46,925 nt of DNA from a virus. Taxonomy: Duplodnaviria; Caudoviricetes. Position 1 is the first letter of the stretch; the number at the start of each line of letters is the position of its first letter. The position numbers were made by a program, and so were the translations under genes. Positions 2-45,726 of this stretch are shown piece by piece. The stretch covers positions 1 to 46,925 of the IMG/VR virus record IMGVR_UViG_3300033067_001736; one strand, 5' to 3'. The notes beneath the pieces are model-generated. The model ran no database searches and had not been told where the DNA came from. It was given only the letters and a program-made list of their open reading frames with translations.

Positions 2-3000
2 AATTCAGAAGCTTTTGTAAATGAAGTTGTAAATTTATTTCAATCTGTTGGAATTAAATTTTATCCTGAAACAATTAAAAAGTTATTAGCAGGAGATGTT
101 TTTGTTGACAAAAACAATAAGAAAGTAATTACATCTTTTGAAGATCAGTTTAATACTAAAAATGGTAAGTTTTCTGTATTACGTAATGGTATAGCACACT
201 TATTGTCAACAGATAAAAATGTACATTATGTAAGTGGTACAGCTTCTCCTTTTCAAATATCTCAATTTACTGCAATACTAAAAGGATTATCTAAAGTACA
301 AACAGTATATTCCCCTATTAAACCTGTATCTTCTATAAGAAGTAATGGTAAAACTTATACTGGGTTTCCACCTAAGACTATGTTATCTGAATTATTTTCT
401 GATCTTCAGAGAAATGATTTTTCAGTTATTGACAATAGTGTTTATCAGGCAGGTTCATTATTAAGACAATGGATGGAGAATGAGACTTTTAAATCTCATA
501 TATCAGTAGAACCAATGTCTAATGATTCTTTAAGAAGGCAAGGTCAAAAGTCTTCAAAAGAAAGTGATATTGCATCTTCTTCTGATACAGACTATTGGAA
601 TACAGTATTTGGTTTATTTTTCTCAATGACTGATTCTAAGTTAAATCAGAAATTTGGTAATACTTCAATAAGATACAGAGTAGCTTCTTTCTTGTTTCCT
701 GCATTATCAGATAAGAGTACATTTATTTCTATGAGATCTCCGGCATTTGATCTTAACTTTTCAGATGTAAAGTTATTTGATTTTACAGATGGTAAATTTA
801 CTTTTATACATTCTGATCTTATAAATTTAGTATATGACCAATTGGTAGTACCTGAATTAGCAAGGATTAAGAATCATCACCAACAAGCACTACTTGAAGG
901 TGTATCACCAAATCATCTTGAAAACATACAACACTATAATTCTTTTGCTCAACTATTTAATTCTATACCTGAATTAAATAAAATAGGTAATGAGAATGGG
1001 TTGTTCATTCATCAAATTGCTCAATCTATGAAAGCAGGTAAATCAATAGCAAACATACTTATTGATTTTAAAGCTGCTTCTGTACAAGTACTTGAGAAAC
1101 TAATAAGTCAGGAAGTTAATGATCTATTGGAAGTAAGAGATAATAATCAGATAAAGATTAATGATGCTTATAATGGTGATAAAAACAAAAGAGAAACTTC
1201 TTTTGAAAATGCAATGGTAGATTTTGTTATCAATAACATGATTGCAAAAGCAAATATTGATATGACTTTTGTTGGTGATCCTGCTTTATTTGGTGTCAAA
1301 TTAAATAATGCTGATTTTCAAATTGATGAAAAAACAGGACTACCTGTTTATACTCTTCCTATTGATAATAAAATAGAAGTGTATGATAATGTTATGACTA
1401 AGCAGAATGTAAATATTGCAAAAAGACTTGCTCAATTAATTGCACCGGGTAATGAATTAGCAAATAGTAAAGGTAAAAAATACATTCAGGTATTTGTTGA
1501 AGATTTAGAATTGTCTGTTGAAAACATTGAATTTCTAATTGAAAGTTTTAATGGTAAGTTAGATATTGAAGCCTATGAAAAAGTAAAAGATGAAGATAAA
1601 CTTAAATACTTAGCAACTACTCATCCTTATATTGCAGATTATCTAAATATTGAAAGTACTGATGGTCAAGAATATATAACTATTCATGAAGCACTAAAAA
1701 ATATTTTTGGTCAAGGTAAACTTGAACAAGAAGAGTTTGATAGATTAATTGGAATTGCAAACAGTAGTAATCCTGTTTTTTCTCAAGAAGAGAAACAACT
1801 TATTATTAATACTTTTAAACCTGTTGCTGCCGGCTTTGTTAAATCTCAAAGGGGTGTAAACAGAAATATGTATGTTAAAAGTTCTGCTCTTGTATTATTT
1901 CCTGAAGTAACAAAAGGTCGTCAAATAAATGAGCTTAGATTACAAATGGAAAGAGCAGAAAAAGAAACTGGTCATAGTGTAAGAGTAGCTTATAAAACTG
2001 CTGTTAAAGTTGGTTTACCAACTCAATCTTTATCTATTTTTGATTCTGAAGGAAATATTTCTTCAGATTTAGCTACCAAGTTTGATACCATAATAAAAGA
2101 AGTAACTGATGTAAAGTCATTAACTAATTCAGAAAATATTAGTTCTGTAAAAAATGGTTCATGGGTAATGATGGAAGGTGGAAACTTTAGAATACAACAA
2201 GCTACACCTACAAAGAATAAAACAGAAATTAAATATCTTACTCAATTATTGAAATTGATGTTTGGTGATGGAGTAGTAGATATTACTGAAGATATGTTTA
2301 AAGGTATGAATGGTCAACAATTGCATGACTATCACCAACAAATTATGTTTGATTATATAGATTCTCAAAAACGTAATCTATATAACACATTGTCTTTGGG
2401 TAAAAATGGAGAATCAAGAGACCCATTAAAGACCATTAATAAGTTAAAAGAATTACTTCAAGATGAAGCTGATACAAGTTCATTTAATAATTCCGATTTA
2501 AAAGCTTTAGATATCGAATATAATCCGGTAACAAAGACTTTTGATTTTAATATGCCACTATGGATGCAATCCAATAGTACAAGATATGAAAAATTATTGA
2601 TGTCAATAATCAATAATAGATTAAATAAACTTACTTTACCGGGTCATGCTTTTATTGCTGCTTCCAATGCAGGCTTTAAAAACGTAAATGATTTAACTGC
2701 TGAACAAGAATCTACTATTATATGGGTAGATCCTACTAAAATGCAAGGACTAAATGATCCTGCTAAGAGTAAAGTATTGATACCAAGTAAAATGCGTATT
2801 GATGGTAAACTTGTTGATCTTATGCAAAAAGATGAAAATGGTAAGTTTATTTATATTACTGAAAACAGAGAATTAGAAGATGGTAGTATTGTAGCAGGTT
2901 ATTCAATAAATAAAGAAATGTTTGATGAAGATTTGTTTACAATTACTTCAACTCGTATTCCTACTTCAGGTCACATGTCTTCAGGTGTTGTACAGATTGC

Positions 3001-6000
3001 AGGATTTCTTCCTAATGTATCTGATGTAATGTATGTCCCTTCTCATTTGATTCCTCAAAAAGGTCTTGATTTTGACGTAGATAAAGAATATACGTTATTG
3101 TCTCACTTAGTAATAGATAACGATGGTAAAATAAGAAAAATCTCTTATGACTTCATTAGTTCTTTAGAAAAAGAGAATCAACAATACAGAGAACAAGTAA
3201 AAGCTAATTTAGAGGCTTCTAATGCTATTAAAGCTTATAATGAGTCTTTGTATGAGAAAGCTAAAAATGAAGAGAATAAGACTAAGGCAAGAGCTTTATA
3301 CAATGAACTTAAAGTTAATGCAAGTGAAAGAAAGGAAAGGCTTAATGATGTTGCATTAATTAGAGAAAGAATAAACAATAACCTTTCTATTATAAAAGAG
3401 TATGGTCAAAAAGCAAGAGAAAATGAACTTGTAAATATTTATACTGCTGTTCTTGGACACTCTTCAATGAGATCAAGAGTAGCACAAACTGTAAATACTT
3501 CTCTTGCTAAAGCAAGTTCAGAAGCTATTAATGGTAATGTAAAAAATAAAAAACTTATTTCTTCATTATTATCTACTTATCAAAGAAGTATTGCAGGTGC
3601 AGGTAATATTGGTAAAGTAGCCATTGGTACATATAGTAATTTCATGGTTACATTATCTTTAATGCAACAAAATCCTCAAGAATTTTCTTTAGGTGAAGAT
3701 ATTGTTTTTGGATATTTAGTAAATGAAAATGGTAAATTAGCACCATTAACTTCTCTTCAAGAAAATAAACCCGGTAAAAAGAATGAAAAAAGAAGATTGT
3801 CAGTAATAGGTATGGAAAAACAAAATACTGCTACAGATAATCAAAAGCTTAAAATTCTTGATAGTGTTGGTATAAATGAGTTTACTATTGGTGTAGATGC
3901 AATGATGTATGCTTTGGGTATTGATACTGTACATGTGGATTCTATTAATCAAGACTTAATGGCATCTCACTTGTTACTTTCTCAACCAATTATCAAAGAG
4001 TATTCTGATAAGATGAGAAATTCAGGAGCAGTATCTACTGCTTATGATCCTGATCTTTCTAATAAAATATTAGAAGAACTACAAGAAAAATATGGATTTG
4101 TACTTTTTGATACAGATCCTAAATTACTAACAGGTCAAAACCTTTTTAATAATTTAAATTCTGATTCTTTATCAAATCCTAATCTTAATGCTGCTGTTCT
4201 AAGTTTCTTTTTGAAAATGAATATTGAATCAGCTAAGATGAATAGTTTTATTGGAATACTAAATGTTCAGTCTAAAGGGGCAGGTACTACTTATTTAGAA
4301 TTACAAGATAAAACCGAAGCATTTTTAGAGTTATCTGAAGATTATGAAAAAGGAGCATATATTTCTTTACTTGGTGATTTTAAACATGAAAGTGATGAAG
4401 ACTTTGAAAATAAAGAAGGTTATGTATTAGTAGAGAATTCAAATGGAATGATGTTCTTACCTACTACAATACAAGGTAAACTACTTATTGAAAGTTTAAA
4501 TTCTGCAAATAAATTGTGGAGTCAATTCTACCCTTTTAAAAATGAAACATTTAAGAGAGTAATGAGACAGACTTTGAATACTATGCCAAAAACAAGTGGT
4601 AAAAAACAAAGACTTCAGAACAAAACTTTTGTATTGAATGAAATGATCAAATACTTTTATGGTTCTCAAGAACTTGGTTTTGAAATTAATAACCAAGAAA
4701 GATTGGAATTACTTGTTGAAAAAGAAGGTAATCAATCTTTAGCCGGGTATTTAAAAACTCAAATGGATAAGTATCCTGCTTTTGCGTCTAACAGGTTTAT
4801 TTCAATTTTAGAACCAATAGTAAATAACTCAAGTAAATATTCATTGGTCCATACTAATAATATAAATGATTTAACTCCATTAGAAGAAGATGCTATTACA
4901 AATGGTATTTATGCTTTATTGAATAGTCCTATCAAATTAGATAATAGAAATGGTAAACCTTATAATACAAATAATTTAGTAGCAGATTTGATCAAGTATA
5001 ACTATTTATTTAATGGTAATAAATATTCTCCTACAGGATTTTCTAAGTATATACCTTTAAATATTGCAAAGGCAATTGGTATTACTGAAGAAACAAGAAA
5101 ATTTAATGCTGCATTAAAAGTTGATGATTTAGATACTTTAAACAAAATATTTGATTTTGATGCTAATGGGGTAACTTCTTTTACAAGGCAATTTGCACAA
5201 AACAATCCTGATAAAGTAAAAGGTGTTTCTCAAAGAGGAATAGCTTCTGCTACAACTACTACACAAATAATAAACGGTGTTTCAATGATAATACCGGAAT
5301 CATTTACTGTTGCTGAAACAGATTCTTTTGCTTACTTTCTTAGTATCAAATTAACTGAAACCCCTGTTAATGGTAAGCCTTATGCCCTTTATGAGTATAA
5401 TTTTGCAACTCGTCAATATGAAAGAATTAGGGTAAAAGGTCAACAAACTATTAGTGCTTATTCAGCAGATAATATTGTGAAGATTCCATCAAAGAATCCT
5501 GTACCACAAACAAGTGTAAAGTTTACAAATTTGGAAACTGCACTTAGTACTATTGCAAATGGTAAACTTGTACCTGATTTCTATAAGGAATTAGCAACAC
5601 AACTACTTCCATTTATTGATCCTAAAACTTCAATTACATATACTACTTTTGAAAATAAAAATAACAATGGAAAGTACCTTCCATCTTCTAATGAAATACA
5701 GATTGCTGATCATTTATCTTCTTCTCAATTTAGAGATGAACATGCAGTAACTATTCTTAAAGAGTATGCTCACTCTATTACAGCAAGAGTAATAAATAAA
5801 TATTTTGTTAGTAATACATTATCTTCAGGTGTAATAACATATACTTTAAAAGATCTTGATAATGTCTCAATGACACCTCAAGAAATTAAAGAATATAACA
5901 TTATGAAAAGATTAAATGCTCTTCATAATGAAGCTAAAAAAGCACTTGATCCTTCAGGAGAATTTCTTAAAAACTTTGAAGATACAAATACATTAAATAG

Positions 6001-7813
6001 TATAAAAGATCAAACTATTAACTATGGTATAGTAAATATTCATGAGTTTGTAGAAATGATGCTTACTTCATCTGATTTTCAAAATGCACTAAATGAAATT
6101 CCATTTAAGAATACAGAAGATAGTATCCTTTCTAAGTTTTGGAAGTTGATTAGTGATTTGTTAAATGTATCTATACCGGGACTGAAATTAAATCCTGAAA
6201 GTATTACTGCTCAATCATTAGTAAATATCTATGATTTGTTACATAAAGCTGAAATTGCTGCTGCAAATTCAACTACTGAAGAACTTTCGCATTCTGATAT
6301 AGCTACAGGTTCAGGTAGAAAATGGGATGGTGTTGGTAAAGATTTTTCAGAAAAAGTAAGGTTTGATATTACTGGTGTTGCGCCAAATAATAAAGATCCT
6401 AAAAAAGCTGCTATTGCTACAGATATAATTGAGTTTGGTAGAGATACAACCAATAGAAAATCAAGTACTAAAAAATATGGGGAAGCTGCTATTGCACAAG
6501 GAATACCTCGTAATTCAGGTAAATATAACAATAGTACTGTGGCATTTACTTCAACAAGTGGTAATAATGTAGCTACTGAAGAAGATATAAACAATACAGT
6601 TAATGAGATATTAAAAGTATTAATGGCAGGTGGTAGTATCATAATGGATAATAAAGAAAATAGAAATTCTAAATGGAATAAATCAGGAGAAGGTAAAGTT
6701 TGGGAATTACTTATGGAAAAAATTGGTGGTATAGATAAATTACAAAATATATCTAAGGATAAAGATTTTGTACAAGTTAAATTAAAAGATGCACCGACTG
6801 TAGAATTTGTATCTGAAATACAAAAAAGAATAGATGCTGCTAAATCAAGTGTATCTGTTAAAACTAATACTTCTACTAAAGAAGATGCTAAACCGATAAC
6901 AGAACTTGAGATGGCTGCTATTGTTACTAAAGGACAAGACATTGAACTTATTCCTGTAGATAGTGATAAGAAAGGTTATCAGAATATAAAGAATCCTGAA
7001 ATCACTTATGAAAGGCAAAGTGATTATGTAAAAAGAGTAAATGATGAGGATGCTATTGAACAAAATGATGATTTAAGAGCTGCACAAATACGTGGTAACT
7101 TTGTTGATTTATTGGCAAGAGATATATTTAATGATGAGATTGGAGATGTTCAAACTTATATTGATGAAGTTAATGAAAGAAGTAAAGCTGATGGTTCTAA
7201 TTTTACACTTACTCTTGAAGATGAAGTGTTTGAAGAGTTAATTGATCAGATTGTAAGTGTAAAAAATGAATTGGAAAATAAAGGGTTTACTTTTTATTCA
7301 CAAGATATTGTAGTATTTAAAAACTTTAAAGAAGAAACTAATGGTCATAAAGGTTTAGCCGGAGTATTAGATCTTTTGGTTAAAGGACCTGATAATAGAC
7401 TTCACATTATAGATTTTAAAACTAAAACTCTTACTGCTAAGAACTTGAATAATACTGAAGTTGCTGTATTTGATATGAAAATGTTTGGTGATAAAATTGC
7501 TTTACCTTTAGTAGATAAATGGGGAAATCAACAAACTGTTTATTCTGAACTAATTGATGCTGATATTCAATCTATTAATGTACTTGCAATAACTGTAATA
7601 CAAGAATTACAAGGTACAAATGTACATGTAATAGGAACAGAATTCATTACAGATTCTATCGCAATAAAAGAAGATTATGCTTCTCCTATGTCTGATAAAA
7701 TTATTCAGTTAAAAATAAATGAAACTCTAAGAGATAAAGTAAGAAATGATATTGCAAATGATAGTTTAAATTCCTTATCTTTGTCCTCTGATGAATTACC
7801 TAATTGTATTTAA
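2..7813 (+). CDS. Giant virion-packaged RNA polymerase polyprotein (crAss-like, phi14:2 gp66 type), 5'-truncated; C-terminal zincin-like and PD-(D/E)xK domains
   Basis: Frame is open from position 2 (NSEAFVNEVV...), so the 203 start is artefactual. Motifs STDGQEYIT, RIPTSGHMS and catalytic GLDFDVDK (DxDxD). Zincin-like ILKEYAH...IHEFVEM. C-terminal GVLDLLV...IIDFKTK. Confidence 0.9.
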   Translation, partial: NSEAFVNEVVNLFQSVGIKFYPETIKKLLAGDVFVDKNNKKVITSFEDQFNTKNGKFSVLRNGIAHLLSTDKNVHYVSGTASPFQISQFTAILKGLSKVQTVYSPIKPVSSIRSNGKTYTGFPPKTMLSELFSDLQRNDFSVIDNSVYQAGSLLRQWMENETFKSHISVEPMSNDSLRRQGQKSSKESDIASSSDTDYWNTVFGLFFSMTDSKLNQKFGNTSIRYRVASFLFPALSDKSTFISMRSPAFDLNFSDVKLFDFTDGKFTFIHSDLINLVYDQLVVPELARIKNHHQQALLEGVSPNHLENIQHYNSFAQLFNSIPELNKIGNENGLFIHQIAQSMKAGKSIANILIDFKAASVQVLEKLISQEVNDLLEVRDNNQIKINDAYNGDKNKRETSFENAMVDFVINNMIAKANIDMTFVGDPALFGVKLNNADFQIDEKTGLPVYTLPIDNKIEVYDNVMTKQNVNIAKRLAQLIAPGNELANSKGKKYIQVFVEDLELSVENIEFLIESFNGKLDIEAYEKVKDEDKLKYLATTHPYIADYLNIESTDGQEYITIHEALKNIFGQGKLEQEEFDRLIGIANSSNPVFSQEEKQLIINTFKPVAAGFVKSQRGVNRNMYVKSSALVLFPEVTKGRQINELRLQMERAEKETGHSVRVAYKTAVKVGLPTQSLSIFDSEGNISSDLATKFDTIIKEVTDVKSLTNSENISSVKNGSWVMMEGGNFRIQQATPTKNKTEIKYLTQLLKLMFGDGVVDITEDMFKGMNGQQLHDYHQQIMFDYIDSQKRNLYNTLSLGKNGESRDPLKTINKLKELLQDEADTSSFNNSDLKALDIEYNPVTKTFDFNMPLWMQSNSTRYEKLLMSIINNRLNKLTLPGHAFIAASNAGFKNVNDLTAEQESTIIWVDPTKMQGLNDPAKSKVLIPSKMRIDGKLVDLMQKDENGKFIYITENRELEDGSIVAGYSINKEMFDEDLFTITSTRIPTSGHMSSGVVQIAGFLPNVSDVMYVPSHLIPQKGLDFDVDKEYTLLSHLVIDNDGKIRKISYDFISSLEKENQQYREQVKANLEASNAIKAYNESLYEKAKNEENKTKARALYNELKVNASERKERLNDVALIRERINNNLSIIKEYGQKARENELVNIYTAVLGHSSMRSRVAQTVNTSLAKASSEAINGNVKNKKLISSLLSTYQRSIAGAGNIGKVAIGTYSNFMVTLSLMQQNPQEFSLGEDIVFGYLVNENGKLAPLTSLQENKPGKKNEKRRLSVIGMEKQNTATDNQKLKILDSVGINEFTIGVDAMMYALGIDTVHVDSINQDLMASHLLLSQPIIKEYSDKMRNSGAVSTAYDPDLSNKILEELQEKYGFVLFDTDPKLLTGQNLFNNLNSDSLSNPNLNAAVLSFFLKMNIESAKMNSFIGILNVQSKGAGTTYLELQDKTEAFLELSEDYEKGAYISLLGDFKHESDEDFENKEGYVLVENSNGMMFLPTTIQGKLLIESLNSANKLWSQFYPFKNETFKRVMRQTLNTMPKTSGKKQRLQNKTFVLNEMIKYFYGSQELGFEINNQERLELLVEKEGNQSLAGYLKTQMDKYPAFASNRFISILEPIVNNSSKYSLVHTNNINDLTPLEEDAITNGIYALLNSPIKLDNRNGKPYNTNNLVADLIKYNYLFNGNKYSPTGFSKYIPLNIAKAIGITEETRKFNAALKVDDLDTLNKIFDFDANGVTSFTRQFAQNNPDKVKGVSQRGIASATTTTQIINGVSMIIPESFTVAETDSFAYFLSIKLTETPVNGKPYALYEYNFATRQYERIRVKGQQTISAYSADNIVKIPSKNPVPQTSVKFTNLETALSTIANGKLVPDFYKELATQLLPFIDPKTSITYTTFENKNNNGKYLPSSNEIQIADHLSSSQFRDEHAVTILKEYAHSITARVINKYFVSNTLSSGVITYTLKDLDNVSMTPQEIKEYNIMKRLNALHNEAKKALDPSGEFLKNFEDTNTLNSIKDQTINYGIVNIHEFVEMMLTSSDFQNALNEIPFKNTEDSILSKFWKLISDLLNVSIPGLKLNPESITAQSLVNIYDLLHKAEIAAANSTTEELSHSDIATGSGRKWDGVGKDFSEKVRFDITGVAPNNKDPKKAAIATDIIEFGRDTTNRKSSTKKYGEAAIAQGIPRNSGKYNNSTVAFTSTSGNNVATEEDINNTVNEILKVLMAGGSIIMDNKENRNSKWNKSGEGKVWELLMEKIGGIDKLQNISKDKDFVQVKLKDAPTVEFVSEIQKRIDAAKSSVSVKTNTSTKEDAKPITELEMAAIVTKGQDIELIPVDSDKKGYQNIKNPEITYERQSDYVKRVNDEDAIEQNDDLRAAQIRGNFVDLLARDIFNDEIGDVQTYIDEVNERSKADGSNFTLTLEDEVFEELIDQIVSVKNELENKGFTFYSQDIVVFKNFKEETNGHKGLAGVLDLLVKGPDNRLHIIDFKTKTLTAKNLNNTEVAVFDMKMFGDKIALPLVDKWGNQQTVYSELIDADIQSINVLAITVIQELQGTNVHVIGTEFITDSIAIKEDYASPMSDKIIQLKINETLRDKVRNDIANDSLNSLSLSSDELPNCI
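7752..7783 (+). promoter_or_regulatory. Bacteroidota primary-sigma promoter (-33 TTG, -7 TAnnTTTG)
   Basis: TTG at 7752-7754, 21-nt spacer, TATCTTTG at 7776-7783, 45 nt upstream of the ATG at 7828. Confidence 0.6.
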
Positions 7814-15768: not shown

Positions 15769-16308
15769 TTAAGCTTCTGTTTGGTCTTCGACCGTTGCAT
15801 CTGGAGCATTTTTCATGACAGAAGCGATACCATTTTCGCGTGAAGCTTCGCTTTCATACATTTCACTTGTTCCAATGATTTGACCATTTCCAGCTTTTAG
15901 GTTGAAATAAGGCCTGTCATTCTTAGAAGTCAAACGATCATAACGACCATCTTCAGTTGAATTTTTCTTCACGGACTCTATGCCATTCATACAAGCAGCT
16001 TTGGTTGTGTAGGCTTTTGAGCCAAGAATTTCTTGTCCATTACCGGCTTTTAAGCTGAATTGAAATTGTCCATTTTTTCTTGTAGTTAATACAAATTTAC
16101 CTAATCCTTTGAGGACTTCTTCAGTTGTAGCTAAAGATGAAACTGATTTAGATGAATAACTATGAACATCATAAAATTTAATTATTTCATTTGCATCATC
16201 AATAGTAATAGTTATTTTATTTTCAGTATTAAAAAAATCATTTCTTGTTAACTTTATTTTTTCTCTTAATTGCTTAATTAATTTTTTCATGTTTTTATGT
16301 GTTTTCAC
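15769..16308 (-). CDS. yegP: YegP/DUF1508 tandem-domain protein fused to a phage N-terminal segment
   Basis: GKFVL...NGQFQFSLKAGNGQEILGS.AY..KA.C.NGIESVKKN and YFNLKAGNGQIIGTSEMYESEASRENGIASV.KNAPDA. Confidence 0.85.
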   Translation of the reverse strand: MKTHKNMKKLIKQLREKIKLTRNDFFNTENKITITIDDANEIIKFYDVHSYSSKSVSSLATTEEVLKGLGKFVLTTRKNGQFQFSLKAGNGQEILGSKAYTTKAACMNGIESVKKNSTEDGRYDRLTSKNDRPYFNLKAGNGQIIGTSEMYESEASRENGIASVMKNAPDATVEDQTEA

Positions 16309-17224: not shown

Positions 17225-17328
17225 AGGTTAGGACAGGACTCGAACCTGTAACTTCTTTATCATAAAGAGTGCCATTAGCCGTTATCTCAACCTTGAGGGT
17301 GCTGCGTTACCAATTACGCCACCTAACC
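17225..17328 (-). tRNA. tRNA-like element with intact acceptor, D and T arms but no canonical anticodon arm
   Basis: GGTTAGG/CCTAACC acceptor; GCGT-AATTGGTA-ACGC D arm; ACAGG-TTCGAGT-CCTGT T arm; about 55-nt irregular centre. Confidence 0.7.
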
Positions 17329-39543: not shown

Positions 39544-39839
39544 ATTTATTTGTTTAAAATAAAAATAATAGGCTTTGTTTACCACTGCAATCATAACTAC
39601 TCAAGGATTAACCCGTGAACTCAATCACTTTTCGGTAAGGCCGTCTATCTTGTAGATATTAAATATGCTAGTATCCTGTTATAGGTTCTTTCAGAGTGTT
39701 TAGTAACACACAAACATCTATTTAAGGAATCCCACCTTTTTCACTATAATTGTATAGATACGCTTTCTCGATTGTATTCTACACCAAACTTATTTAGTAG
39801 TGTTGCTGTTCATAAACTAGCTTAATTAGTATTTTATAA

Positions 39840-40067
39840 AATCACTTGTCCAAATTCTAGTGGAATATATTTTATAACTCTAAGTTTCACCTGGTTATGT
39901 ATAAATCAATGTTTATACTTTCAGAAACGTAAGTGAGCATTACTTAATATACCTCTACAATAAACACAACTGCTAGTACAGTTTATAACAAACCAGTGGA
40001 ACTTCCTATGCAACATGGTTTTAATGCTTTCAGGATTATGTTATTGTTTATCTTCAAGCAAGTGATT
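39840..40067 (-). ncRNA. Structured RNA scaffold, copy 1 of 2
   Basis: Three blocks shared with 42344-42573; AATCACTTG/CAAGTGATT closing stem; covarying internal stems. Confidence 0.75.
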
Positions 40068-40422
40068 ATTTCTTTATATATCTTTCAATAAACCATTCTT
40101 TTGCATCAGGAGCTTCAGTAGTTAAACTATTGAATTTTGCTTCACAATCTTTTTGATATTCATTAAGTATGTAAAAAACCTCTTTTAAACTAAATACTTC
40201 TGTTTTTGATATTAGTTCTTCAGGAACAAATTTAATATTGTTATTTCTTACTTCAATCATTCCTACGGCATAATTATGCGCTCCCTTACAAATAATTTGT
40301 ATATCTTTTTTTAGATCCTCTATTGAATCTTTTTCTGTATAATGTTTAAGAGGTGATTTAGCTATCATAGCATTCAATGCTGAACTAGCATAAAAATCAT
40401 AAATTCTTTCTTCAGTTACCAT
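40066..40422 (-). CDS. Hypothetical protein
   Basis: 118 aa ORF. Confidence 0.65.
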   Translation of the reverse strand: MVTEERIYDFYASSALNAMIAKSPLKHYTEKDSIEDLKKDIQIICKGAHNYAVGMIEVRNNNIKFVPEELISKTEVFSLKEVFYILNEYQKDCEAKFNSLTTEAPDAKEWFIERYIKK

Positions 40423-40663: not shown

Positions 40664-40795
40664 GATTATTATTTAATGTTAGTTAATAAAAAAAGAAGAT
40701 TGCAATACAAAGATTGCAACCTTCAAAATGTATCACTTTTAGTACAGCTTATACGATGCTGATTTGGCACTAAAAGAGTGTTTACAAATGTAGTG

Positions 40796-40867
40796 TAATC
40801 CATAGAAGAGTCGAACTTCTGTTTCATGTTTAAAAAGACATGTGTCCTACCACTAGACGAATGGATC
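40796..40867 (-). tRNA. tRNA with 8-nt anticodon loop (CUUUUUAA); identity ambiguous (Lys-like anticodon, Glu-like D arm)
   Basis: GATCCAT/ATGGATT acceptor; GTCT-AGTGGTA-GGAC D arm; CATGT/ACATG stem; AGAAG-TTCGACT-CTTCT T arm. Confidence 0.8.
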
Positions 40868-42117: not shown

Positions 42118-42332
42118 AAATATAATAGTGTGTTGTTACACCAAAAGGCTAGATAGTATCATCAGTATTTACGACCCTACTCTACCTAGATAATAGGTAA
42201 TTAACCTATCTAATTATTGTATTTATCTCCCGTAAGCTAAGTTCTGTCCTTTTATCAGACTACTTTCATACTAGGAGTACTCACCTACTCTTTAAATGGT
42301 GGCTACCTCCAAGCCTACATTCTATTATATTT
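42118..42332 (-). ncRNA. 23S rRNA GTPase-associated-centre (H43-H44, uL11 site) mimic with 145-nt insertion
   Basis: AGAATGTAGGCTTGGAGGTAGCCACCATTTAAAGAGT-[insert]-GTGTAACAACACACT aligns to E. coli 23S 1054-1105; 11-bp closing stem. Confidence 0.85.
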
Positions 42333-42343
42333 ATTTTTTTAAA

Positions 42344-42573
42344 AATCACTTGTCCAAATTCTAGTGGAACAACTCTTTCTTGTAGTTTTATCTCGTAGAT
42401 TAGTCAGCACTCAATGGTGACTTCATACAATAATCGCAGTTACCTTTACAATAAAACACAACTGCTAGTACAGTTTATACATTCCCAATTCGGTCAGGAT
42501 ATACCTGTTCAGCTAACCTTAGTCATAAGCCATTTTATTGGGATTGTACTGTTTTATCTTCAAGCAAGTGATT
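42344..42573 (-). ncRNA. Structured RNA scaffold, copy 2 of 2
   Basis: See 39840-40067. Confidence 0.75.
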
Positions 42574-42583
42574 TGTTTATTAG

Positions 42584-43251: not shown

Positions 43252-43488
43252 TTATTGAGGTCTTTCAAAGGTTTCTACTAATACACCAAGTTTACTAATA
43301 GGTTTGATTTTTGAAATTAAATCTATTGTTTTACCTGTAACATTGTAACAGTAGATTAATCTTTTACCTTTAAATGGAATTGGTCCTGATTTAATAGAAC
43401 CTGATTCCTTTATGGCTTGGATTATATCCTTTGTGAAAGTATCTAACTTTTTGTTAGAGTTACTTTCTATAGTAAATTTAACATTCAT
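43252..43488 (-). CDS. Ribosomal protein uS10/NusE-like protein lacking the ribosome-binding loop
   Basis: VKFTIES...KKLD....IIQAIKESGS..SGPIPF-KG-KRLI......KTIDLI aligns to uS10 IRIRLKAFDHRLIDQ..EIVETAKRTGAQVRGPIPL...RLVDI..PTEKTVDAL; ATG at 43488. Confidence 0.75.
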   Translation of the reverse strand: MNVKFTIESNSNKKLDTFTKDIIQAIKESGSIKSGPIPFKGKRLIYCYNVTGKTIDLISKIKPISKLGVLVETFERPQ

Positions 43489-43819
43489 CAAAGATTGAGA
43501 GCAGGTATTATAAAGATAAAAGAGTTGTATCCCTTTATTTCAAGTACTATATCATCTTTTACCATCCTGCTCTACTCTTCAAGGTTGCGATCCTTGTTAT
43601 GTCTGATAGCCATAAATTAAGGTAAAGGCTATATAAATAATGTTGTGGTTTTGAGAGGTTTTGTGAAAGTGGGAATATACCGTGTGGGTGGTCTTTACTA
43701 CTCTTTCACACTCATTTTTACACAAAAATAAAATTCAAAACCCTTGCTACTATTACGTTTCAGCAATTTACCTTACTTTGAGAACCTTGGGGAATCCCGA
43801 AGGGCTGAATATAGTAGTG

Positions 43820-43848
43820 CAAGATTTAATAGTTGCTAAAATACAGTA
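43820..43848 (-). promoter_or_regulatory. 29-bp repeated motif, putative phage early promoter (copy 1)
   Basis: TACTGTATTTTAGCAACTATTAAATCTTG on the - strand, four near-identical intergenic copies. Confidence 0.65.
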
Positions 43849-43897: not shown

Positions 43898-43924
43898 TGG
43901 GGAGCATAAGTGAATATACTCCCC
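43898..43924 (-). terminator. Intrinsic terminator
   Basis: GGGGAG...CTCCCC stem with a T run on the - strand downstream of 43939. Confidence 0.65.
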
Positions 43925-44563: not shown

Positions 44564-44592
44564 CAAAATTTAATAGTTGCTAGAATACAGTA
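44564..44592 (-). promoter_or_regulatory. 29-bp motif copy 2
   Basis: TACTGTATTCTAGCAACTATTAAATTTTG. Confidence 0.65.
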
Positions 44593-44770: not shown

Positions 44771-44799
44771 CAAGATTTAATAGTTGCTAAAATACAATA
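44771..44799 (-). promoter_or_regulatory. 29-bp motif copy 3
   Basis: TATTGTATTTTAGCAACTATTAAATCTTG. Confidence 0.65.
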
Positions 44800-45697: not shown

Positions 45698-45726
45698 CAA
45701 AATTTAATAGTTGCCAAAATACAGTA
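45698..45726 (-). promoter_or_regulatory. 29-bp motif copy 4
   Basis: TACTGTATTTTGGCAACTATTAAATTTTG. Confidence 0.65.

Follow-up and report, generated by a model that had tools for sequence, protein, structure and literature searches.

A natural loop-less uS10/NusE homologue and its structured leader RNA in a family of freshwater phages

In the 46,925 nt of viral DNA analysed here in full (IMG/VR record IMGVR_UViG_3300033067_001736, hereafter the window), we found that a 78 aa protein (P0001) is a member of the uS10 fold family in a natural loop-less form, and that its gene is coupled to a previously uncatalogued structured RNA, the P1-P2 leader. The protein is probably not a working ribosomal uS10 and probably works like NusE, and taken with its leader it suggests a phage tool aimed at the host transcription machinery. 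The gene and the parts of its leader are located as follows.

43252-43488, minus strand: gene for the loop-less uS10/NusE homologue, 78 aa (ORF, Pfam, PDB, Foldseek and alignment)
43491-43597, minus strand: leader RNA of two hairpins, ∼110 nt, directly upstream of the S10-like gene
43580-43597, minus strand: hairpin P1, a 5 bp stem (CAAGG/CCUUG) with a 7 nt loop (RUCRYAA) and an A in front
43491-43579, minus strand: long hairpin P2 with internal loops, abutting P1 (folding and covariation)

The uS10 identity of this ORF, which the initial annotation had read from the letters alone, was borne out by both sequence and structure searches. The Pfam Ribosomal_S10 model (PF00338) matched the protein at 23.7 bits (cut-off 21.2, E 6e-5) and 18 of 20 family members at E ≤ 0.1, and a profile of 20 family sequences matched uS10 at E 2.6e-16. 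A sequence search of the PDB (E ≤ 10) returned 59 matches, all but four of which were named S10 or uS10 (the four being one designed binder, two enolase entries and one entry labelled NusE), and the best of the matches were split in two, covering residues 3-49 and 41-65. When the AlphaFold model of the protein (pLDDT 83) was submitted to Foldseek, a check proposed in advance together with PF00338, the uS10 fold was recovered with engineered, loop-deleted NusE chains on top (3r2c, 2kvq, 3r2d and 3d3b; E 6e-6 to 1e-5, TM 0.83-0.86); the TM values against the top uS10 chains ranged from 0.83 to 0.89, and that of the Atlas model was 0.88. Alignment to E. coli uS10 and to four Bacteroidota uS10s showed that the window protein has KG where residues 43-70 (28 aa) stand in E. 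coli. A segment is therefore absent as had been claimed, but its size had been put at roughly 20 residues and the net loss is in fact 26. Identity to host uS10 was 22-29 %, with Flavobacterium-type uS10 the closest by sequence.

The same deletion is found throughout a family of phages of freshwater, which was assembled in successive protein searches yielding 2, then 19, then 37 proteins. Of the 19 representative matches, two that were long repeat proteins (P0016 and P0019) were dropped as spurious and a 60 aa fragment (P0012) was excluded from the family counts, which refer to 49 sequences with near-copies among them. All 49 carry a short joint in place of the loop (KG in 29, KN in 17, KQ in two and KKG in one), and a KH joint was seen in two members found later; as the joint is shared by 49 of 49 proteins, the deletion is no assembly accident. 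Members are 24-62 % identical to the query and retain an intact frame. The search for loop-less uS10 in other phages, suggested at the outset, returned a conserved family. Searches of cellular genomes (301 Bacteroidota genomes, and a joint-motif search of cellular genome contigs) found no loop-less copy or relative. The family profile matched 291 of the 301 Bacteroidota genomes, with at most two matches each (best E 5.5e-10); the matches listed were half-length, the 30 proteins fetched were full-length rpsJ products, and the ribosome-binding loop (residues ∼46-67) was present in 34 of 34 cellular sequences. In a quick tree of 78 columns, which leaves the donor unnamed, a single branch (SH-aLRT 99) divided the 53 phage rows and the 34 cellular rows into two groups. 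V35, K71 and Y77 are common to the phage family and Bacteroidota uS10 and are absent from E. coli. A pointer to the host comes from a small protein encoded at 15769-16095 on the minus strand, presumably YegP-like, which shares up to 85 % identity with chromosomal proteins of Bacteroidota and whose 80 best genome relatives are all from Bacteroidota. Scanning viral sequences with P0025 or with the alignments A4, A5 and A6 returned no relative, and neither did a search of annotated phage isolates; no PHROG family was found for the three members examined, an Atlas search gave no usable feature match, and no longer or fused form was present among 7998 candidates, the last being weak evidence. Our literature searches found no report of a phage-encoded uS10, and S10 is not named in the main texts of PMC6375957, PMC9723584 and PMC13623518, the supplementary tables of which could list it.

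In order to discern which surfaces of NusE are kept, residues were compared in E. coli numbering, with counts over the 49 family proteins. NusB contacts NusE at helix 1 and strand 2, through H15, R16, D19 and V26 (PMC8341153), whilst R72 is buried in the NusB interface and R16 stacks on U8 of BoxA (PMC3177189). G38, P39, I/V40 and R/K72 (R in 41) are each present in 49 of 49 phage proteins, and further NusB-facing positions carry K16 (46/49), D19 (37/49) and I/V26 (33/49). The NusB-facing surface is thus largely kept, with H15 mostly replaced by N. Indeed, the start of helix 1 has been re-tooled from host Y/F13-D14-H15-N16 to N-S-N-K, with S14 in 43, N15 in 40 and K16 in 46 of the 49, as compared with 33 Bacteroidota host uS10s that have D at position 14 in 33 and H at position 15 in 32. 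Since H15 is a NusB contact and is replaced, the ligand at the helix 1 start may have changed, and the family-specific SNSNK motif itself suggests a new ligand. With regard to NusG, which pairs with strand β4 of NusE and a pocket by helix 2 (bioRxiv 2020.03.01.971028), D/E97, E99 and K101 are invariant in the 33 Bacteroidota uS10s, whereas no residue exceeds 12/49 at these positions in the phage family, the mapping to E. coli beyond position 91 being ungapped and rough. The hydrophobic residues of the NusG pocket are retained (L87 in 46/49, M/I/L88 in 37, I/L/F/V84 in 46 and V/I100 in 42); as the pocket is kept and the β4 contact is a sheet extension, NusG could still bind. Capture of NusG or of UpxY-type proteins, which had been put forward alongside that of NusB, nevertheless emerges as the weaker of the two proposals because the host-invariant positions 97, 99 and 101 are free to vary in the family. 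K9, R11, R45 and K46, reported to bind double-stranded RNA (PMC3177189), are changed or deleted. The family has a median net charge of +8, compared with +4 to +5 when four host proteins are counted without their loop, the added basic residues including K16 and K43 (49/49). As binding of S10 to NusB and to the ribosome is mutually exclusive (PMC10931766), the kept face alone cannot choose between NusB and rRNA.

The DNA context of the gene was compared at nine distinct loci, drawn from the window, virus records G001-G003 and G009-G012, and metagenome contigs L010, L012 and L013, with L010 near-identical to G003 and G011 to G012. Hairpin P1 has one exact copy in the window, where 0.12 would be expected at up to three mismatches, and the same 18-mer was seen in the upstream DNA of the five loci compared. 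Each of the seven records found through the protein (six distinct) has it once, 109-134 nt upstream of the start codon; L007 and L010 were not used to define it. The initial annotation had overlooked this conserved RNA. Scanning viral contigs for P1 gave 89 matches, of which 80 were fetched; seven of these directly precede a loop-less S10 gene, four being new (three distinct), and in these seven gene-linked loci P1 continues with GG into a long stem. The distance from P2 to the ATG is 2 nt in the window, 10-12 nt in seven of the nine loci and 32 nt in L013. Folding z-scores of the leader ranged from −2.4 to −6.4 across all nine loci. Within an alignment of seven sequences, which also served to derive the P2 structure, 18 of 29 P2 pairs changed on both sides, a number reached in none of 500 shuffles, and slid pairings scored far lower than the P2 pairing. 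As the five pairs of P1 are invariant, they contribute no covariation; G-U pairs at the base of the stem point to the sense strand. A covariance model of the leader (R1) placed all 11 of its matches at ≥ 33 bits beside the gene, seven of them training rows; it scored 34-41 bits on the held-out L154, L120 and L169, and did not exceed 28.6 bits at loci lacking the gene (57 sources searched). Copies were found one per genome in each of five genomes. Rfam 15 had no match over 43491-43597 at the gathering score or at E ≤ 5, and the motif string was not found in the literature text searched.

We considered several possible origins for the leader. R1 matched nothing in 151 host genomes (under strict filters and with no positive control), exact P1 was missing from 201 genomes, and R1 did not find the leader as a host element in four rpsJ and two rrn loci. 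Descent from 16S helices 38-39 was rejected at the sequence level, as the alignment gave no consistent site: when the nine leaders were compared with two host 16S sequences, 3 of the 18 comparisons had ≤ 2 of 60 shuffles scoring as high, the sites all differed and none was helix 39. By eye, P2 resembles the 3′ strand of host helix 39 in having (A/U)CUC after an A-rich bulge. The geometry of P1 is that of an anticodon arm, with a 5 bp stem, a 7 nt loop, U at loop position 2 and AA at the loop end. In two of the nine loci the P1 core GG-R-UCAUAACC is a single-letter variant of GGCUCAUAACC, a host tRNA arm with anticodon CAU; the loop is RUCGCAA in seven of nine loci, and the outer stem is unlike that of the host tRNA arm.

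P1 also occurs alone in non-coding phage DNA, at 46 of the 80 fetched loci in DNA of the Streptococcus-prophage type and at 10 others. At L127:3001-3018 and 45 similar loci it is nested in a larger stem ahead of Streptococcus prophage packaging genes; at L146:3001-3018, in a 210 kb phage, it stands by itself with a ROOL RNA 110 nt further on; and at L124:3001-3018 and L141:318-335, in two phages, it lies inside or beside tRNA clusters. P1 matched 51 annotated phage records; among the 12 listed, the matched site carries no annotated feature in 10. Eleven of the 80 fetched loci lay inside long ORFs, and a further six had a CACAA loop resembling a reverse-strand histidine tRNA arm; both groups were treated as chance.

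Around the gene and its leader, the following features of the window were annotated.

43806-43848, minus strand (presumed): last of four copies of a 43 nt repeat, putative early promoter of the leader-first unit (repeat search)
43824-43846, 44568-44590, 44775-44797 and 45702-45724, minus strand: promoter-like repeat copies before early genes
43899-43924, minus strand: terminator-like hairpin closing the preceding 190 aa gene
40695-40724: terminator-like site downstream of the S10-like gene
2-7813, plus strand: partial 2603 aa crAss-type virion protein (PHROG 16227)
39825-40076 and 42329-42582, minus strand: duplicated non-coding element, ∼250-270 nt long; the two copies have three blocks in common, and the ends pair

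The order in the window is terminator-like hairpin, last repeat, RNA and S10-like gene, followed by 31 kb of co-directional genes, and the hairpin at 43899-43924 makes the S10-like gene probably the first of its own unit. The view that this is a phage early gene agrees with such a layout, as the module occupies the early part of a Bacteroidota phage genome; in all four measurable loci the gene is 3-7 kb from a strand switch with ≥ 10 kb of co-directional genes behind it, and for three relatives the distance from module to switch is 3.8-6.8 kb, with no long gene on the opposite strand over the following 10 kb. The 43 nt repeat, present in four copies where none is expected, contains a promoter-like repeat one base longer than the Bacteroidota TAnnTTTG word, which is a candidate virion polymerase promoter. 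The TAnnTTTG word itself was found within 600 nt in two of the nine loci, and no spaced host-type promoter was evident. In phage phi14:2, a virion RNA polymerase reads the early genes. The giant virion protein at 2-7813, which we take to be a probable virion RNA polymerase, had weak matches in two of four relatives. The duplicated element has a folding z-score of −2.4 (one copy) and no Rfam match, and no match better than E 0.01 was found for it in four related phage records; as it is missing from these relatives, it cannot be the common target of the family. The initial annotation had proposed that the protein antiterminates a non-coding RNA cluster just downstream. As the purpose of the family this was not upheld, given that neither the 270 nt element in the four relatives nor any BoxA-like sense-strand site was found.

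Potential host partners were readily found, with NusB in five of five host genomes, NusG in four of five, and BoxA-like sites in the rrn leader and spacer of both host genomes searched for them. The residues of the NusB:S10 interface are partly conserved in Bacteroidota (PMC13753749), and rrn and CRISPR transcripts need the NusB:S10/BoxA complex in E. coli (PMC13753749). NusG binds either S10 or Rho, never both (PMC13753749; bioRxiv 2020.03.01.971028). Amongst family records, three of which are ≥ 90 % complete, NusB was absent from all seven searched (the window by Pfam only, in part) and NusG from all four searched. As neither protein was found in the phages, the partner must come from the host. 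With a Bacteroidota-type BoxA pattern built from two host genomes, the window and six loci had no exact match on their sense strands, and the one-mismatch counts of 2, 2, 2, 3 and 0, compared with 1.6, 1.6, 2.05, 0.85 and 1.25 expected, were near chance. As a separate observation, Bacteroidota NusB proteins (L098-L102) are ∼300-316 aa long and are matched by the Pfam model only from position 34-41 onward; their first helix is seemingly set apart by a long insertion, which bears on S10 binding there.

Our best explanation, which we offer as possible rather than probable, is that an early, ribosome-free NusE mimic captures host NusB, with P1-P2 as a control leader; within it, we infer every binding partner and every effect. 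The phage would express this mimic early in infection, its kept helix-1/strand-2/Arg72 face would bind host NusB, and the protein would compete with host S10 for that partner. As the polar residues of the NusG strand are not kept, we propose that the hybrid complex makes a poor connection to NusG. The host rRNA operons would thereby have their BoxA-dependent antitermination weakened or diverted, other BoxA-led non-coding transcripts would be affected likewise, and host polymerase and Nus factors might be freed for the phage. P1-P2 would act in cis as the control leader of the S10-like gene: the end of P2, ∼11 nt before the start codon, would fall within the ribosome footprint, and surplus protein or a host factor on P1-P2 could set protein output. 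Counting against this reading, the invariance of P1 and its solo occurrence exceed the needs of a simple translational operator. Should a NusB decoy prove to be correct, it would represent a new route of host takeover via rRNA synthesis.

The coupling of RNA and gene, with exact P1 in seven of seven records and all 11 R1 matches at ≥ 33 bits beside the gene, would also be expected of a nut-like module, an explanation we consider somewhat unlikely. Here, P1-P2 would load the loop-less S10 onto NusG-bound host polymerase, with or instead of NusB:BoxA, so that NusG-Rho contact is blocked and the early-to-replication block is read through. This fits with the position of the module at the head of a unit before 31 kb of co-directional genes and a terminator-like site at 40695-40724, with solo P1 in non-coding phage DNA (46/80 loci of Streptococcus prophage type, another beside a ROOL RNA and two in tRNA clusters), with the exclusive binding of NusG to S10 or Rho and with the kept NusG pocket residues. 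However, if a virion polymerase reads the early repeat, a cis signal for host polymerase sits on the wrong enzyme, and it is this possible virion polymerase that leads us to rank a cis antiterminator second; in addition, a host-type promoter is not evident (TAnnTTTG in 2/9 loci), K9, R11, R45 and K46 are lost or deleted, and the β4 polar residues are not kept. A bolder proposal, which we regard as unlikely, is that P1-P2 and the protein imitate a trailing ribosome, the RNA replacing the 16S head or NusB:BoxA and handing S10 to NusG. Untranslated phage RNA would then escape Rho without N protein, BoxA or NusB, and P1, which stands by itself before late or non-coding transcripts of phages from other phyla, would serve phages in general as a signal for elongation.

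Other explanations place the target outside the Nus factors or dispense with function altogether. The face kept by the family is one whose use by NusB excludes ribosome binding, and the protein might instead take the place of host uS10 on 16S rRNA or the 30S head, with assembly blocked or ribosomes altered, and with the leader mimicking the rRNA site for feedback repression as in cellular ribosomal proteins. The added basic residues (net charge median +8) and the by-eye resemblance of the P2 A-rich bulge and (A/U)CUC to helix 39 speak for this, and we judge it unlikely. Loop-less S10 reportedly failed to bind ribosomes in the work of Luo in 2008. The loop that is described as ribosome-binding is gone from the phage protein (PMC3177189, PMC7390762, PMC2800207), and alignment of the leader with host 16S yields no consistent site, both of which count against a 16S-head binder. 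The anticodon-arm geometry of P1, the two of nine cores one letter from a host tRNA arm and the SNSNK motif, with the new ligand that it suggests, are in keeping with an RNA that is freed as a small RNA and acts in trans with the protein on a non-Nus target, for example as an anticodon-arm-like decoy; this is nonetheless improbable, as the loop is RUCGCAA in seven of nine loci, the outer stem differs from that of the host arm, and the near-fixed distance from P2 to the start codon is typical of cis leaders. Finally, low identity to host uS10 (22-29 %) is the sole point in favour of a decayed, functionless capture of host rpsJ, and we find this extremely improbable in view of the intact frame, a joint common to all 49 proteins at 24-62 % identity to the query, the family-specific invariant residues and the covarying RNA kept alongside.

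The ribosomal and transcription jobs of S10 have been separated in the laboratory by loop deletion. In the engineered NusE Δloop, 22 residues were removed and one serine inserted (PMC2800207), and the resulting structures (E. coli 3D3B and 2KVQ; Aquifex aeolicus 3R2C and 3R2D) show the same fold without the loop. The phage family is like these in keeping G38-P39, R72 and D19; unlike them, it is natural and viral, has a net loss of 26 rather than 21 residues, carries SNSNK, an invariant joint Lys and its own RNA, and does not keep the NusG-facing polar residues. Compared with Bacteroidota uS10 (rpsJ), the phage form is loop-less, encoded outside a ribosomal operon and far more variable. The arrangement of a hairpin RNA and then a small early gene heading a long transcription block, with S10 involved, recalls the lambda N-nut and rrn systems, but here the phage supplies S10 itself, BoxA was not found and the P1 loop has 7 nt. 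The BoxB hairpin of lambda nut has a purine-rich pentaloop, whereas the loop of P1 is the 7 nt RUCRYAA; HK022 put consists of two adjacent hairpins, and P1-P2 resembles it in this respect. A structured RNA directly before a ribosomal-protein-like gene is also typical of autoregulatory ribosomal-protein leaders, and as in feedback leaders P2 ends close to the start codon (2-12 nt before the ATG in eight of nine loci); in contrast to those leaders, there is no Rfam match, no occurrence in the host genomes searched and no 16S sequence likeness. Known phage ribosomal proteins (Mizuno 2019, PMC6375957; bS21 phages, PMC9723584) are similar in being captured host genes in phages of aquatic bacteria, whereas the present gene is an early one and its product lacks the ribosome anchor.

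The loop cut is the same one that laboratories made, and phages have kept the deletion across dozens of lineages. The protein therefore offers a natural tool for asking what a ribosome-free S10 does, and whether NusB/NusG antitermination operates in Bacteroidota. If the RNA does load the protein onto polymerase, it would constitute a new antitermination architecture; the leader, in addition, is a structured RNA absent from the catalogue, and a simple motif suffices to search for it. Two tRNA-like features were also noted on the minus strand of the window: a tRNA at 40796-40867 with an 8 nt anticodon loop (tttt per ARAGORN), and a 104 nt tRNA-like match at 17225-17328 detected by Rfam only.
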